Positions 1,638 to 15,248 of a stretch of 20,725 nucleotides of DNA are shown in pieces (position 1 is the first letter of the stretch; every line of letters starts with the position of its first letter). The position numbers and the translations under genes were made by a program. Location: the UHGV virus genome UHGV-1517735; one strand, 5' to 3'. The DNA is from a virus. The notes below the pieces were generated by a model. That model was not told where the DNA came from. It saw nothing but the letters and a program-made list of their open reading frames with translations, and did no database searches.

Positions 1638-2288
1638 TCATGCAGCACGCTCCCGCCCCTGGTTGTCTGTTGGTGACAGCGGAGCATTGCTGAATGCATT
1701 TGTTAATCCGCCAATATCCAACGCGTATCCAGGGTGTAGTTGCACTGCCGGGTCTTCGCACTGATTACCCCAAACATCGAAGCCATGAGACGTCTGGCGG
1801 GCGAACAGTTCAATGCGAGAAACATCGCCTAATAATTGCACAAGTTTTTCACGAACGATATCTGGCTTTCTTGAATGCTCAAGCCGCGGTGCGGTAAATG
1901 ACTGAACGATCCCTGCATTAATGCGCGTAGGTAGTTTTCCCTTTACCGCAAACAGGCAATCTTCACTATTGGCGCGAGTCATGTGTCCCATACCCATAAC
2001 CAGTTTATCTGGTTGTCGACTACCACATTTTATCCACGTGAAGCCCTTCATCGTCATCAGACGGAATCCCCAGGCTTCAACAACTTTTAGTGCTTCGAGT
2101 GGTTGTGTTGGCACCCACCACATGGCCAACAGACAGTTTTCATCGGCCAAATCCCACACAGGAAGGCGGCAGATATCCAGCACACTCATAACCGGATATT
2201 TAAAACCGGCACCGCGATTACCATCTGCGGCTTTGTCCCGGTATACCCAGGGTGGATCTGCATAGATTAGTGTGTATTTCTTAGTCAT
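1638..2288 (-). CDS. MT-A70 family N6-adenine DNA methyltransferase (orphan, no cognate nuclease seen)
   Basis: 216-aa ORF; IYADPPW catalytic motif near N-terminus and EHSRKP motif; start overlaps upstream gene stop. Confidence 0.85.
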   Translation of the reverse strand: MTKKYTLIYADPPWVYRDKAADGNRGAGFKYPVMSVLDICRLPVWDLADENCLLAMWWVPTQPLEALKVVEAWGFRLMTMKGFTWIKCGSRQPDKLVMGMGHMTRANSEDCLFAVKGKLPTRINAGIVQSFTAPRLEHSRKPDIVREKLVQLLGDVSRIELFARQTSHGFDVWGNQCEDPAVQLHPGYALDIGGLTNAFSNAPLSPTDNQGRERAA

Positions 2289-2580
2289 AAACCACCCCGC
2301 AACATCCTATACCGCTATAGTCTCCACGGCGAAGGCCGTTACCTTTTGTGATACATTGGTCCCTGCGAACCGCGATCCTTGCACGCTCAACATCACCAGA
2401 AGCAACATCCATACACTGAAGCCAAAGGTGAGCGGCAATGCGGAACTGCCCTTTTTTCTCTCTTTCAATCGCGCGTTTTTCGATCTCTATCGCCGCAGGA
2501 GTAACGGCGACAATCTTTGACGGACTGCGCATTGAAACCTTATTCATGTGATATTTTTCAAGTCGGCTTAACTTTCTCAC
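2281..2580 (-). CDS. Hypothetical protein (99 aa)
   Basis: ORF with GTG start preceded by AGAGAGGG; stop overlaps the methyltransferase start by 8 nt; no recognisable domain. Confidence 0.5.
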   Translation of the reverse strand: MRKLSRLEKYHMNKVSMRSPSKIVAVTPAAIEIEKRAIEREKKGQFRIAAHLWLQCMDVASGDVERARIAVRRDQCITKGNGLRRGDYSGIGCCGVVYD

Positions 2581-2693
2581 TTAATCCAACCCTCTCTGAA
2601 AATTAATGCCAGCAGATAAAGCCATGCTGAAACAGAGGCCAGGAATAAGTACCATCCTGACCATTTGATCCAGTGCCTTAGCAGCGCACTCAT
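2577..2693 (-). CDS. Small hydrophobic peptide (38 aa, single predicted transmembrane helix)
   Basis: Hand-translated, below ORF-track cutoff: MSALLRHWIKWSGWYLFLASVSAWLYLLALIFREGWIK; ATG overlaps the excisionase stop (ATGA) and its TGA overlaps the GTG start of the next gene (GTGA). Confidence 0.4.
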   Translation of the reverse strand: MSALLRHWIKWSGWYLFLASVSAWLYLLALIFREGWIK

Positions 2694-2938
2694 GCAGCGT
2701 TGCTCACGGGACGATATACACGTTGCTGAACAGGAGGTTTTTTACCCTGGAACTCTGCCGGGCTTGCTGCCTGACGTTCATCAAGCCAACGCTCAACTTC
2801 GTCACGGTTCCATGCGCAGCGTTTGTCAGTGATATACCAGCGTTTAGGAAATTCCCCTGCGCGCTCCATACGGTCGATAGTGCTCCATGACAGTGGCACC
2901 ACCGCCAGGAGTTCCTTCTTACCTAATGCACCTTTCAT
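2690..2938 (-). CDS. AlpA/Xis-family excisionase or DNA-binding regulator
   Basis: 82-aa ORF; LSWSTIDRMERAGEFPKRWYI...CAWNRDEVERWL fits the AlpA/Xis HTH pattern; RBS AGAGAGG; sits between int and the recombination genes. Confidence 0.75.
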   Translation of the reverse strand: MKGALGKKELLAVVPLSWSTIDRMERAGEFPKRWYITDKRCAWNRDEVERWLDERQAASPAEFQGKKPPVQQRVYRPVSNAA

Positions 2939-2987
2939 AAATACCTCTCTTGGTTGCAGTGCGGCGCGTGTGGCACCGCGGTGGTGG

Positions 2988-3869
2988 TTACATAGATGTT
3001 TCGTTTAATTCTTCCCGACGAACGCTGTAAACGTCGGTGGCTTTTGCCAGCAGTTCGTCATCATCTGAAAGTTTTTGTGCAATGTATTTGTAAGCCTTAT
3101 CCAGTTCGGAGACGGTGCTGTAATTCATCGCTGCGCTGGTAAAGGCCATCAGCATTTCTTCTGGATCACGGCTATCCGCTTTACGCGTTTGCTCATCATG
3201 CTTTTTCACTGGTTTAGCGTTGATCAGACTGTTCATTCCCGCAGCAGTAGTCGTTTGCGGAGTAATGTCTCGCTCAACGCGCGGTGCCGTTTCCTGTAAT
3301 TCGTCAGGGGTGTAAACACCGAGAAGCACATCAGGAGCGTGCAGGCGAGCCCATCGTTTCGTGCAAAGATAGGCAAGCTGCTGGCGCGGATCCTGTTCCC
3401 ACAATGGAGAGTTACGCACTCCGGCTTGCGCCATACTGATGGTAAGCTCACGGGGTTCTGCTTCTCCTTTAAGAACTGCTGACACAGTTACCGTCAGATT
3501 CGGTGATTTATCTGTTTTGCCGTTAACATTCGACCAGTCACCGCTCCAGCGATAATTCAGGCGTGTCGCTAGCAGGCTGGAAGAGGATACGACCGCGTTT
3601 ACCAACTGTGCTTCGTAGCCTAACGTTCCGTTTACCACATGCGTTTTCTGCGCCACGGCGAAAGGGTTCATTCCCCACTGTGCCGCCTGCATGGTCACCG
3701 CCAGACAATCGGCAGGTTTGCCTTCAAGATGTTTCGGTACAGTCGCTTTGCTTTGTGACATCAACTCCGCGAAACGCACCAGTTGATTCATGCCCTCCGG
3801 GCTGAAGATTGCCGCAGCAGTACCTACAGTTGCGCCTGGTTGTGATGTGATTGCGATATCATTGCTCAT
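2988..3869 (-). CDS. recT: RecT-family single-strand annealing recombinase
   Basis: 293-aa ORF; RecT-like core; ERDITP segment resembles phage annealing proteins; 4-nt overlap (ATGA) with the upstream exonuclease gene. Confidence 0.8.
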   Translation of the reverse strand: MSNDIAITSQPGATVGTAAAIFSPEGMNQLVRFAELMSQSKATVPKHLEGKPADCLAVTMQAAQWGMNPFAVAQKTHVVNGTLGYEAQLVNAVVSSSSLLATRLNYRWSGDWSNVNGKTDKSPNLTVTVSAVLKGEAEPRELTISMAQAGVRNSPLWEQDPRQQLAYLCTKRWARLHAPDVLLGVYTPDELQETAPRVERDITPQTTTAAGMNSLINAKPVKKHDEQTRKADSRDPEEMLMAFTSAAMNYSTVSELDKAYKYIAQKLSDDDELLAKATDVYSVRREELNETSM

Positions 3870-4687
3870 ACGTACATATCCTGTTTACGTGCCCAGTCAG
3901 GGCGTTTAATAATTTCCACGCCGCCCCATTCATCGTTGATGCGGCATTCGTGATAGGTATTCAGATCCCGGCGGAACAGAGCGTGCCCGGCATCGACATC
4001 CGGCGCATCCAGCTCGAACACGCGTACCGGATACCGACCACAATCAATGCTTTCGCTCACGGCAAGAAAGAAAAAACCATGCGACTGACCAGTAACCCTC
4101 ATCGCTCCTTCGCGGTACATTGCGTCCTGCACGTGGTAGCGGAATTCCTCGATGTGGCGTGCAAAACGATCCATATCTGCAACCTTTTTCACGTCGACGA
4201 TCACGTTGTGCTCGTTCAGCCATTTGTCTGGACGAATGCGGCACAACTCACCAGTCTCTTCATCATTCCAGTACATTGATGCTTCGCAGTAACCAGGTGC
4301 TTCCAGCATCCAGCGTGCCGCCGGGTGAGCCATTGCGCTATCACGCATCAGCTCCAGTTTCCGCCACTGCTCGGCATCAAGTACCGTAATCCCCATATCC
4401 GCTACATCACGAAGAAATGCTTCTTCGTCAGCTTTACCTTGTTTCGTCCGACGATCGAACTTCGGTGAAACAATGAAGCGTTTGTCGAATTCTCCAGGCT
4501 CCAGAAGCAGACAGTGCAATGCGGTTCCCATATCCAGTGCAGACTTTTTCTCTTCGTCTTCTGGTGCTGCCTGAACCCATTTAAGAAGCGCCGGATTCTT
4601 GGCAACCATGTCCAGTTGCGACTTACTCACGCCGTCACCGGCGTGGTAGTCTTCGTTGCTGATGTCGAAATAAATTCCCGGTTTCAT
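3866..4687 (-). CDS. PD-(D/E)XK exonuclease, RecE / exodeoxyribonuclease VIII-like partner of RecT
   Basis: 273-aa ORF; RIRPDKW...IVDVKKV matches the PD-(D/E)XK D..(D/E)xK arrangement; N-terminus GIYFDISNEDYH typical of the family; directly upstream of recT. Confidence 0.75.
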   Translation of the reverse strand: MKPGIYFDISNEDYHAGDGVSKSQLDMVAKNPALLKWVQAAPEDEEKKSALDMGTALHCLLLEPGEFDKRFIVSPKFDRRTKQGKADEEAFLRDVADMGITVLDAEQWRKLELMRDSAMAHPAARWMLEAPGYCEASMYWNDEETGELCRIRPDKWLNEHNVIVDVKKVADMDRFARHIEEFRYHVQDAMYREGAMRVTGQSHGFFFLAVSESIDCGRYPVRVFELDAPDVDAGHALFRRDLNTYHECRINDEWGGVEIIKRPDWARKQDMYV

Positions 4688-5157: not shown

Positions 5158-5234
5158 TTACCGTTGAGGTAATAATTATGCGTATTTGGTTTGATGTCAA
5201 TAGATATGAGTTAAAAAAATTACCCATTAGGTAA
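5158..5234 (-). promoter_or_regulatory. PL-like leftward early promoter with two flanking operators
   Basis: Operators TTACC-GTTGA-GGTAA (5158-5172) and TTACC-CATTA-GGTAA (5220-5234); minus-strand -35 TTGACA at 5195-5200; AT-rich -10 region around 5172-5180. Confidence 0.55.
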
Positions 5235-5243
5235 TAGTATAGG

Positions 5244-5270
5244 CAATAAAAAAGCCGCCAGAAGGCGGCT
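5244..5270 (-). terminator. Rho-independent terminator downstream of the repressor gene
   Basis: AGCCGCC / GGCGGCT stem with AGAA loop, followed on the minus strand by TTTTTTATT. Confidence 0.6.
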
Positions 5271-5291
5271 TACTTACTGAAAAATATGATT

Positions 5292-5876
5292 TTATTGTTT
5301 GTTTTTTTCGTTCTGGTTGATGACAAATTCAATGTAACTTTCGATCTTTGCTTTCTCAGTTTCGGGTAACAATGCGTAGCGCGAGCGGTCATAGTTGATG
5401 GTCGCAGGGTCGTGCGGGTGAATCAGTAATTCATAGCCGTGACGCCCGAATGCGGATGCAACATTCTCCAGGGTGGAAATGGAAACGCTGACCTCATTGT
5501 TTAACAGGCGGCTGATTGTCACCTGGGCGACGCCGGATGCGCGGTGAAGTTTTCCCTGTGTTGAAAGGTCGCGGCTTTCGCTCATCCAGCGTTCCAGGTT
5601 GTGAGCCGCCAGCTGACCTATATCGCTCGGGCCGACAGGCTGAAAACCTTCCTGAGAAAGCGAGCGATCGATATCAAGCCAGTTACGTGGTTTATTGGCG
5701 GCAGCTTCAATTTTTCGCGCAACCTGGTCGCCGATAACCTTCTTGCCAAGAGCCCAGCGGTTTACCAGATTTGCCTGAGTTCCAAGTTTTTCTGCCATCC
5801 GCGTCTGAACACCATTGAATTCACGGTCGATCAAGTCGTTGAGATTTTGCCTGCGGACGTCCTGGATACTTTTCAT
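5292..5876 (-). CDS. CI-like prophage repressor with two HTH domains and no LexA-like peptidase domain
   Basis: 194-aa ORF divergent from the Cro-like gene; N-terminal HTH (QTRMAEKLGTQANLVNRWALGKK) and a second HTH-like segment (SGVAQVTISRLLNNEVSVSISTLENVASAFG); no S24 peptidase signature. Confidence 0.8.
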   Translation of the reverse strand: MKSIQDVRRQNLNDLIDREFNGVQTRMAEKLGTQANLVNRWALGKKVIGDQVARKIEAAANKPRNWLDIDRSLSQEGFQPVGPSDIGQLAAHNLERWMSESRDLSTQGKLHRASGVAQVTISRLLNNEVSVSISTLENVASAFGRHGYELLIHPHDPATINYDRSRYALLPETEKAKIESYIEFVINQNEKNKQ

Positions 5877-5931: not shown

Positions 5932-6005
5932 TTACCCAACAGGTAAATGCACCTCATAGGTAACTATCCTTGATTTTTGTTACCTTATGGGTGAATATTT
6001 ATTAT
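5932..6005. promoter_or_regulatory. OR-like operator cluster (three sites) with PR-like promoter
   Basis: TTACC-CAACA-GGTAA (5932-5946), GCACC-TCATA-GGTAA (5949-5963), TTACC-TTATG-GGTGA (5980-5994); -35 TTGTTA (5977-5982), 17-bp spacer, -10 TATTAT (6000-6005) so the third operator sits inside the promoter. Confidence 0.6.
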
Positions 6006-8175: not shown

Positions 8176-8180
8176 TACCA

Positions 8181-8200
8181 GCGCGATAGCGCATTTTTTT
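8181..8200 (+). terminator. Weak terminator-like hairpin with T7 tract after the P-like gene
   Basis: GCGC GATA GCGC followed by ATTTTTTT. Confidence 0.35.
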
Positions 8201-8212
8201 ACGCCTCGATAA

Positions 8213-8289
8213 TTACCTGTTAGGTAACAAAATATTATAAACTCTATTGATTTCATGTCTTATGTGGTTTTTAATTACCTCAGAGGTAA
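8213..8289 (+). promoter_or_regulatory. Operator-flanked promoter for the downstream operon
   Basis: TTACC-TGTTA-GGTAA (8213-8227) and TTACC-TCAGA-GGTAA (8275-8289); -35 TTGATT (8247-8252), 17-bp spacer, -10 TTTAAT (8270-8275); same layout as the PL-like promoter. Confidence 0.55.
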
Positions 8290-8292
8290 ATC

Positions 8293-14821: not shown

Positions 14822-15143
14822 AACGCTGAGAGCACTTAGCCTGTTAAGGCGCCACACTTTGTCGCGGCTCCATAAATGCTCTCATCGTTGTACCCTCGTC
14901 TCTTCCGAGGCGTCACACCGAATCGCCGGGATGGTGAATCCCCGTGCGCGGAATAAAACCGCTCGACTTGCACATTCCGGCTACCTGGTTCGTTTGCCCG
15001 AGCAAGGGAGGGTGCCCCTTAAACGTATCCAGACCGCTATCGGCGCATGTGCCAGACGCCGTACTGCTCAAAATAAAAGCTCACTCCACCTGTTCAATTT
15101 AACGACAAGCCAGTCAGGTTAGTAACCGGAATGAACTCTTTGG

Positions 15144-15158
15144 TTACCTGAAAGGTAA
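15144..15158. promoter_or_regulatory. Operator-like palindrome TTACC-TGAAA-GGTAA upstream of the head module
   Basis: Perfect match to the recurring palindrome; intergenic. Confidence 0.5.
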
Positions 15159-15248
15159 TAATTTGTGCGTTAAATGTCAACTACCTACGATAAATAAATC
15201 ATATGTGGTTAAATTGGTAATAATTTAATTGCGTACGGAGTCATTGAT

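Follow-up and report, generated by a model that had tools for sequence, protein, structure and literature searches.

A predicted small membrane protein gene conserved between alpA and a PerC-like gene in phiV10/epsilon15-like prophages

Results

A small coupled gene in the leftward operon

We analyzed the UHGV virus genome UHGV-1517735 (20,725 nucleotides; this whole stretch is called the window below) and found that a small open reading frame (ORF) on its minus strand, at 2577..2693, is, as judged by comparison with relatives, a genuine conserved gene under purifying selection. By its similarity to phage proteins, the 38-amino-acid (aa) product, MSALLRHWIKWSGWYLFLASVSAWLYLLALIFREGWIK, is a member of the phiV10 gp35 / epsilon15 gp32 family, which has already been catalogued as a hypothetical membrane protein. 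With slightly better than even confidence, we favor the explanation that this is a translated prophage gene of the phiV10/epsilon15 type (Uetakevirus) for a 38-residue single-pass inner-membrane protein, which would act by helix-helix binding to a larger membrane protein. The small gene and its immediate setting are as follows; dN/dS denotes the ratio of non-synonymous to synonymous substitution rates.

2577..2693, minus strand: small membrane protein gene (phiV10 gp35 / epsilon15 gp32 family, PHROG 17484), identified by the ORF, phrog_17484 and dN/dS
2598..2654, minus strand: predicted transmembrane core, codons 14-32, WYLFLASVSAWLYLLALIF (Kyte-Doolittle, AlphaFold2)
2690..2693, minus strand: ATGA overlap of the small-gene ATG with the TGA of the AlpA-family gene (plus strand reads tcat)
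2577..2580, minus strand: GTGA overlap of the small-gene TGA with the GTG of the PerC-like gene (plus strand reads tcac)
2690..2938, minus strand: AlpA-family excisionase/transcriptional regulator, 82 aa, upstream neighbor (Pfam, PHROG)
2281..2580, minus strand: PerC-like transcriptional activator, 99 aa, GTG start, downstream neighbor (Pfam, PHROG)

The initial annotation, made from the DNA letters, had described an unannotated, Trp-rich hydrophobic helix encoded between the excisionase gene and the next gene and sharing ATGA and GTGA overlaps with them; the ORF coordinates, both overlaps and the nature of the product were confirmed from the sequence.

Conservation and selection

Taken by itself the ORF was unremarkable. 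Its length and hydrophobicity alone were not above chance, as the first 8 kilobases contain 104 ORFs that reach 30 aa or more, and it ranked 5th of 74 small ATG-ORFs in the window by best hydrophobic stretch. Its reality was therefore judged from comparison with relatives, and it is conservation that lifts it above chance. Relatives were found through the neighboring AlpA protein, which made the sample unbiased for the small ORF; the sample comprised 10 informative prophages (from species-representative genomes), 80 IMG/VR contigs and phage records. In relatives the frame has 38 codons and begins with ATG or GTG, a start codon sharing bases with the AlpA stop codon. We found that the frame, both overlaps and the AlpA-small-PerC gene order were shared by at least nine enterobacterial genera, namely Escherichia, Salmonella, Enterobacter, Klebsiella, Citrobacter, Superficieibacter, Pseudocitrobacter, Scandinavium and Kluyvera. 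Farthest away were two relatives from metagenomic lineages, with 39-aa products of 58% and 63% identity, again located between AlpA and PerC-like genes with 4-base overlaps on both sides. Intact copies were present in 78 of the 80 IMG/VR loci and, in a set of 80 metagenome loci that had been chosen by the N-terminal motif of the peptide, in all 80. All full-length relatives, among them these 80 of 80 metagenome loci, had ATGA or GTGA at an unchanged position as the junction on the AlpA side, and the junction on the PerC side was ATGA in relatives outside E. coli.

By pairwise comparison (Nei-Gojobori method), dN/dS was 0.28 for the small gene and lower for its neighbors alpA (0.13) and the PerC-like gene (0.14); the two shifted frames of the small gene gave 1.0 and 1.6 and had stop codons in many versions. 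A tree-based count, which used a neighbor-joining tree, parsimony ancestors and 47 distinct intact versions in which 23% of sites are synonymous, gave 105 synonymous and 128 non-synonymous events (omega about 0.36; p = 4e-14, a rough value as the count ignores transition bias and recombination), and no such excess was seen in the other frames. Eleven alignment columns were invariant: M1, W11, S12, G13, L18, A23, W24, L27, I31, G35 and W36. A search of Rfam together with RNA folding detected no RNA family and no unusual fold over the region. Since no RNA element covers the region, the conservation is at the protein level, and the gene is real. Loss of the frame in relatives through frameshifts or stops had been named in the initial annotation as evidence that would count against a coupled gene; what we observed was a frame kept across genera under purifying selection.

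Two other readings of the same bases were rejected. The frame of an N-terminally extended PerC-like gene over the region was interrupted by stop codons in 7 of 13 versions, and its dN/dS was about 1.5. An antisense ORF with a dN/dS of 0.42 shared third codon positions with the sense frame and had stops in 4 of 13 versions, and its ratio was considered a mirror effect. Besides, an exhaustive phmmer search against 1.84 billion representative proteins yielded five relatives, all from the gene's own family, and one spurious repeat protein.

Family identity and earlier annotation

The product matched phrog_17484, 'membrane protein', over residues 1-38 of the 38-position profile (E = 2.5e-26, 92.3 bits). 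This full-length match, the position between AlpA and PerC-like genes with both 4-base overlaps, and one predicted transmembrane helix are the three features of the family, and all of them were found here. The gene is present in phage records as phiV10 PhiV10p35 (YP_512290.1), epsilon15 gp32 (AAO06095.1), SPN1S_0036 and Tyrion gp33, and the exact sequences are available in NCBI and UniProt (Q286Y2 and Q858E3, the latter being epsilon15 gp32). The PhiV10p35 record reads 'membrane protein; one C terminal transmembrane helix predicted; similar to epsilon15p32'. Identity in tblastn was 100% for vB_EcoP_PAS61, 97% for phiV10 and 82% for epsilon15, and all fell into one 90% cluster. Thus, PhiV10p35, epsilon15 gp32, SPN1S_0036, Tyrion gp33 and phrog_17484 represent the same gene (82-100% identical, with equal length, position and overlaps). 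The window allele has I9 where phiV10 has S9, and nothing of substance is different. A literature search by the identifiers of the protein found no paper naming it.

Because the gene had been recorded in this way, its description as unannotated was correct for the gene track and for PGAP and incorrect for phage GenBank records, which are years old, UniProt and PHROGs. In PGAP/RefSeq annotation of E. coli chromosomes, the ORF was not called in any of the 25 records listed, nor in the chromosome locus L006. The value for annotation is that PGAP omits the small gene in the E. coli chromosomes examined, although the region occurs in 558 of 5426 complete genomes; also, PGAP starts the PerC-like gene too late, and several phage records extend this gene over the small gene in the wrong frame. 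A gene missed by PGAP was thus correctly caught, which would not surprise a specialist in these phages.

Predicted structure of the peptide

Five of the 38 residues are Trp. The best 19-residue Kyte-Doolittle window covered residues 14-32 (mean 1.92), and AlphaFold2, run without an alignment, predicted a single helix of residues 3-37 with a mean predicted local distance difference test score (pLDDT) of 86, reaching 95 in residues 21-30. Both predictions agree with the one-helix, Trp-rich membrane peptide proposed in the initial annotation. The hydrophobic core of 18-19 residues is flanked by Trp8, Trp11 and Trp14 on one side and by Trp36 on the other. It has no charged residue, and its polar residues S20 and S22 are variable. 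On a helical wheel, most of the conserved core positions shared a 160-degree arc and the variable positions occupied the remaining arc, in a pattern that was not clean; the conserved face comprises W11, W14, L18, V21, L25, L28 and A29. The N-terminal flank is basic (R6, H7, K10) and the C-terminal tail, REGWIK, has a net charge near zero. Considering the basic N-terminal flank and the positive-inside rule, an N-in/C-out topology is predicted. No meaningful match for the peptide was found in Pfam (E up to 0.1), NCBIfam, PADLOC (E up to 1) or PDB sequence searches.

A small hydrophobic peptide of this kind could also be a membrane-damaging toxin or a lysis-timing peptide (comparable to type I toxins, holins or viroporins), whose oligomers would depolarize or permeabilize the inner membrane. 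In size, single hydrophobic helix and prophage location it resembles the type I toxins TisB, Hok, Ldr, BsrG and TxpA, which are likewise small, hydrophobic and often prophage-borne (PMC12648545). However, we consider this possibility very unlikely. Near 2577-2693 there was no promoter-like site on either strand and no Rfam match, so that neither an own promoter nor an antisense RNA was found, and the gene is embedded in its operon by overlaps with its neighbors, unlike a toxin-antitoxin locus. The absence of charged or strongly polar residues from the core, where only the variable S20 and S22 are polar, also speaks against it. No Pfam or NCBIfam match was found for type I toxin families (Hok/Gef, Ldr, TisB, Ibs, ShoB and others) and no Pfam match for a holin family. 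Finally, the gene is not in the position of a lysis cassette: the phiV10 lysis genes (Rz-like spanins) lie elsewhere, beyond the integrase gene.

Translation signals and the start of the PerC-like gene

The ribosome-binding site of the small gene is a weak, poorly conserved Shine-Dalgarno-like GTGAG/GAG located about 9-10 bases upstream, and the AlpA gene has a good AGAGAGG before its ATG. Given this weak site, re-initiation by ribosomes terminating on alpA would be the likely mode of entry. A further signal lies within the small gene:

2590..2597, minus strand: AGAGAGGG, Shine-Dalgarno-like run for the PerC-like gene, in small-gene codons 33-35 (R-E-G)

This run ends 10 nucleotides before the PerC-like GTG, and relatives keep GA[GA]GG at codons 33-35 while synonymous bases vary. 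The R-E-G codons of the tail thus double as a Shine-Dalgarno-like run, which is retained by the tail-less phage BUCT554 described below, and conservation of the tail is partly shared with a nucleotide signal.

The small ORF may relay ribosomes to the PerC-like gene as well. A stronger form of this idea is that it is mainly a translational relay: ribosomes coming from alpA would be delivered to the PerC-like gene, which has a poorly spaced ribosome-binding site of its own, and the peptide would be a by-product of translating 117 bases. This would fit the 4-base overlaps found at both ends in all full-length copies, the location of the Shine-Dalgarno-like run inside the small ORF, the weak start codon GTG of the E. 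coli PerC-like gene, and the separate spacer with GAGAGGA that precedes the PerC-like gene in the tail-less lineage. However, dN/dS of 0.28-0.36, the synonymous excess (p = 4e-14, with the roughness noted above) and the invariant helix residues represent conservation beyond the need of a relay, which would not require a hydrophobic helix in every lineage. In addition, the E and G codons of the tail vary synonymously (GAG/GAA and GGT/GGC/GGG/GGA) and the residues remain constant. We therefore regard a mainly relaying function as quite unlikely.

The GTG start of the PerC-like gene, assigned in the initial annotation, was supported: phrog_868 matched residues 1-99 of its 99-position profile (E = 5.7e-62), and the N-terminus xKLxRLEKYH is conserved in relatives from the overlapping start codon. 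The protein also matched Pfam PerC (30.1 bits; cut-off 22.6). Elsewhere, the start is annotated inconsistently. PGAP uses an internal ATG, giving 83 aa (L006, 3469-3720), and the phiV10 RefSeq record uses another ATG, giving 88 aa (L001, 2954-3220). In Klebsiella phages ST512-KPC3phi13.3 and BUCT711 and Salmonella phages PAT1 and VB_ST_E15 (L007-L010, 1539-1913), the PerC-like gene appears as an ORF of 122-124 aa that begins within the small gene in another frame, so that the small gene is hidden; judging from the sequences, this extension is probably an annotation artefact. A sub-threshold match of the PerC-like protein (2284..2580, minus strand) to the NCBIfam ANR (AraC negative regulator) model NF033650 was also observed (23.6 bits versus a cut-off of 32, residues 35-77).

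Truncated copies

Two IMG/VR copies were truncated. A 32-residue variant, MTALKKHIGRWSDVYMYLAVVAYLMWLAAVIS, in which a stop replaces codon 33, was found in nearly identical form in Enterobacter phage BUCT554 and in a prophage of Candidatus Erwinia dacicola.

L107, 1389-1487: truncated variant of phage BUCT554
L018, about 1745-1835: truncated variant of Ca. Erwinia dacicola

In the E. dacicola copy a 10-base deletion removes the normal start, and a relic ...EVWIK is still present after the stop codon. In BUCT554, 13 bases separate the truncated gene from the PerC-like gene, and this spacer contains its own GAGAGGA. Because BUCT554 was isolated as a virion-forming phage with a truncated copy, growth does not depend on the full-length peptide.

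The leftward operon and its control

The order of genes in the leftward operon is recombination genes, alpA, small gene, PerC-like gene, methylase and DUF1382. Upstream are RecT and a PD-(D/E)XK exonuclease, and the other genes near the small ORF encode an MT-A70 methylase and the DUF1382 protein. The AlpA-family neighbor was identified by Pfam Phage_AlpA (24.2 bits; cut-off 21) and by phrog_66, 'excisionase and transcriptional regulator' (E = 2e-16). Overlaps of 4 bases between start and stop codons are found at several junctions of the operon (ATGA at orf104/exo, exo/recT, alpA/small and MTase/DUF1382; GTGA at small/perC), together with one 8-base and one 13-base overlap. A P4-type integrase gene, which starts at 193, converges on the operon. 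The candidate control elements are as follows.

5172..5200, minus strand: sigma-70-like promoter, TTGACA-17-AATTAT (10/12 consensus matches)
5252..5271, minus strand: terminator-like hairpin ending the repressor transcript, just upstream of the promoter
5158-5172 and 5220-5234, no strand assigned: palindromes TTACC-N5-GGTAA, perfect copies that bracket the promoter
136, 5158, 5220, 5932, 5980, 6317, 8213, 8275, 11936, 11954 and 15144: positions of the palindrome in the window

The promoter at 5172..5200 is a candidate by consensus match. It was the only strong minus-strand match upstream, no minus-strand terminator was predicted between it and the small gene, and it probably heads the leftward operon (from about 5138 down to 1447) that contains the small gene. 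The repressor gene is at 5292..5876, and phiV10 has an annotated rho-independent terminator at the place equivalent to 5252..5271. The palindrome occurs in 11 copies in the window (15 bases each, with at most one mismatch), compared with 0.27 expected. The copies at 5932 and 5980 are in the divergent intergenic region between the repressor and the cro-like gene, and others are in or near several gaps between plus-strand ORFs, e.g., 8176-8292 and 15123-15228. This distribution suggests that the palindromes are probably binding sites of a phage regulator, either repressor or activator, which would control several promoters; we read them as putative repressor operators. Since they flank the promoter, the operon would be repressed in the lysogen and expressed upon induction or infection.

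This likely pattern of expression bears on the proposal that the peptide is a protection factor made in the lysogen, acting in superinfection exclusion or in O-antigen (serotype) conversion after the model of Iap from phage D3. D3 is a temperate phage that converts the serotype of its host, and its tiny hydrophobic peptide Iap targets a host membrane protein, inhibiting the O-antigen polymerase (PMC4815439). Also, epsilon15 and phiV10 are serotype-converting phages, and the epsilon15 conversion gene 'transacetylase repressor' is located at the far end of the same leftward block. We nevertheless consider this proposal highly improbable: with operator-like palindromes at the operon promoter, the gene probably stays silent in lysogens; its conservation extends over genera that differ in O-antigen polymerases, with hosts of unrelated O antigens; and, unlike Iap, it has no adjoining polymerase gene. 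As for exclusion, no PADLOC defence model matched (E up to 1).

Discussion

Proposed mode of action

According to the explanation that we favor, a single-pass membrane protein acting by helix-helix binding, the small gene would be transcribed within the leftward operon, silent in the lysogen and switched on upon induction or infection. Ribosomes ending on alpA would re-initiate at ATGA and then pass to the PerC-like gene at GTGA/ATGA. The peptide would insert with its N-terminus (R6, H7, K10) in the cytoplasm, its core between the Trp belts and the 6-residue tail in the periplasm, and during early lytic development it could bind a larger conserved inner-membrane protein, of host or phage origin, by helix-helix contact. 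This mode of action appears most likely because the helix sequence is under selection, with invariant positions, an uncharged core and no enzymatic capacity. Small membrane proteins commonly bind larger membrane proteins, e.g., MgtS and MgtR, which likewise have 30-50 residues, one transmembrane helix and no catalytic function (PMC12648545). Conservation of the peptide within its helix is consistent with such binding. AcrZ, MgrB and SidA are further small membrane regulators of the same size and architecture. In contrast to proteins of the MgtS/MgtR type, the peptide is encoded by a phage, is translationally coupled in an operon and has no homology to them.

Several observations weigh against this explanation. 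Selection on the small gene is weaker than on its neighbors (0.28 versus 0.13-0.14), and polymorphisms within E. coli (13 non-synonymous to 9 synonymous) indicate weak constraint. Conservation of the C-terminal R-E-G coincides with the Shine-Dalgarno-like run, and some of the constraint may be on nucleotides. The prophage copy in K. pneumoniae ATCC 13883 (L015, about 1745-1900) is decaying: a deletion has fused the small ORF, from midway along it, to a point midway along the PerC-like gene. The BUCT554/E. dacicola lineage had a ratio of non-synonymous to synonymous differences (pN/pS) of 0.7-1.0 versus the main family, yet BUCT554 is a viable phage; on these values, its copy appears to be either decaying or fast-evolving. 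In addition, a literature search found no ribosome profiling or proteomics on the peptide, and the binding partner is a step that we purely infer.

The initial annotation had also raised a Kil-like role, in which a host-takeover factor blocks division or another envelope process on induction and is toxic when expressed alone. We consider this unlikely, and it would be a special case of the favored explanation, with growth or division arrest as the outcome, rather than a contradiction of it. Small transmembrane division inhibitors are known from Caulobacter (SidA) and from phage SPO1 (gp56). The genomic setting is a point in favor: lambdoid kil genes lie in the leftward operon near recombination genes and xis, and the small gene occupies a leftward operon beside such genes. 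This operon follows a repressor terminator, and the palindromes at its promoter recur in the gap between repressor and cro-like gene; repressor control of the operon is putative. The phage and prophage division inhibitors lambda Kil, KilR and DicB are likewise small, non-essential genes of a leftward early operon near recombination and excision genes. Conservation across host genera would fit a conserved host target, and the PHROGs category of phrog_17484 is 'moron, auxiliary metabolic gene and host takeover', which is only a category label attached to 'membrane protein'. However, the peptide has no sequence relation to any Kil family or other family: Lambda_Kil gave no Pfam match (E up to 0.1), and the relatives among 1.84 billion proteins were from its own family only. 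Lambda Kil is not known to be a transmembrane peptide, so that the analogy rests on operon position. Besides, a truncated and diverged copy in a viable phage means that the function is dispensable, and no report of a phenotype was found in a literature search.

A broader and rather speculative idea, to which we give as little credence as to the Kil-like role, is that AlpA, the peptide and PerC form one regulatory device. In this device the peptide would be the effector on a conserved inner-membrane target (of division, envelope synthesis or the FtsH type), reprogramming the host when a Uetakevirus is induced. The trio is always contiguous and chained by overlaps, and the genes on either side vary. 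If such a device exists, it would represent a new family of phage small transmembrane inhibitors present in approximately 10% of complete E. coli genomes. The biological significance is modest, that of a conserved phage small membrane protein from a class with few characterized members; a defined host target, if there is one, would make it a new small-peptide inhibitor.

Other features of the window

The sequence matches place the window among the phiV10/epsilon15-like (Uetakevirus) prophages of E. coli. The region was found at 95-100% identity in 561 E. coli records (558 of 5426 complete genomes) and was also matched by the temperate podophages phiV10, vB_EcoP_PAS61, ZX5 and TL-2011b. Identity to epsilon15, SPN1S, SPC32H, Enterobacter phage Tyrion and several Klebsiella phages, all of them Uetakevirus, was 65-80%. 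The attP core of phiV10, epsilon15 and ZX5, ATTGAGTGGGAATGATT (PMC9782041), did not occur in the window even at two mismatches; the attachment site is either outside the window or different.

In the gap between recT and alpA (2939-2987, minus strand) there is a GC-rich 7-bp hairpin, GCGGUGC-CACAC-GCGCCGC, with no U tract. The equivalent hairpin is labeled 'stem-loop; transcriptional pausing' in epsilon15, and the folding energy in the window was ordinary compared with shuffled sequences (z = -0.7). Upstream of this gap, the exonuclease (273 aa) and RecT (293 aa) are separate in the window (2988..4687) and joined by an ATGA overlap, and the phiV10 record (753-2513) shows a single fused 'recET' of 1761 bases, so that either the fusion is real or one of the two sequences contains a frameshift.

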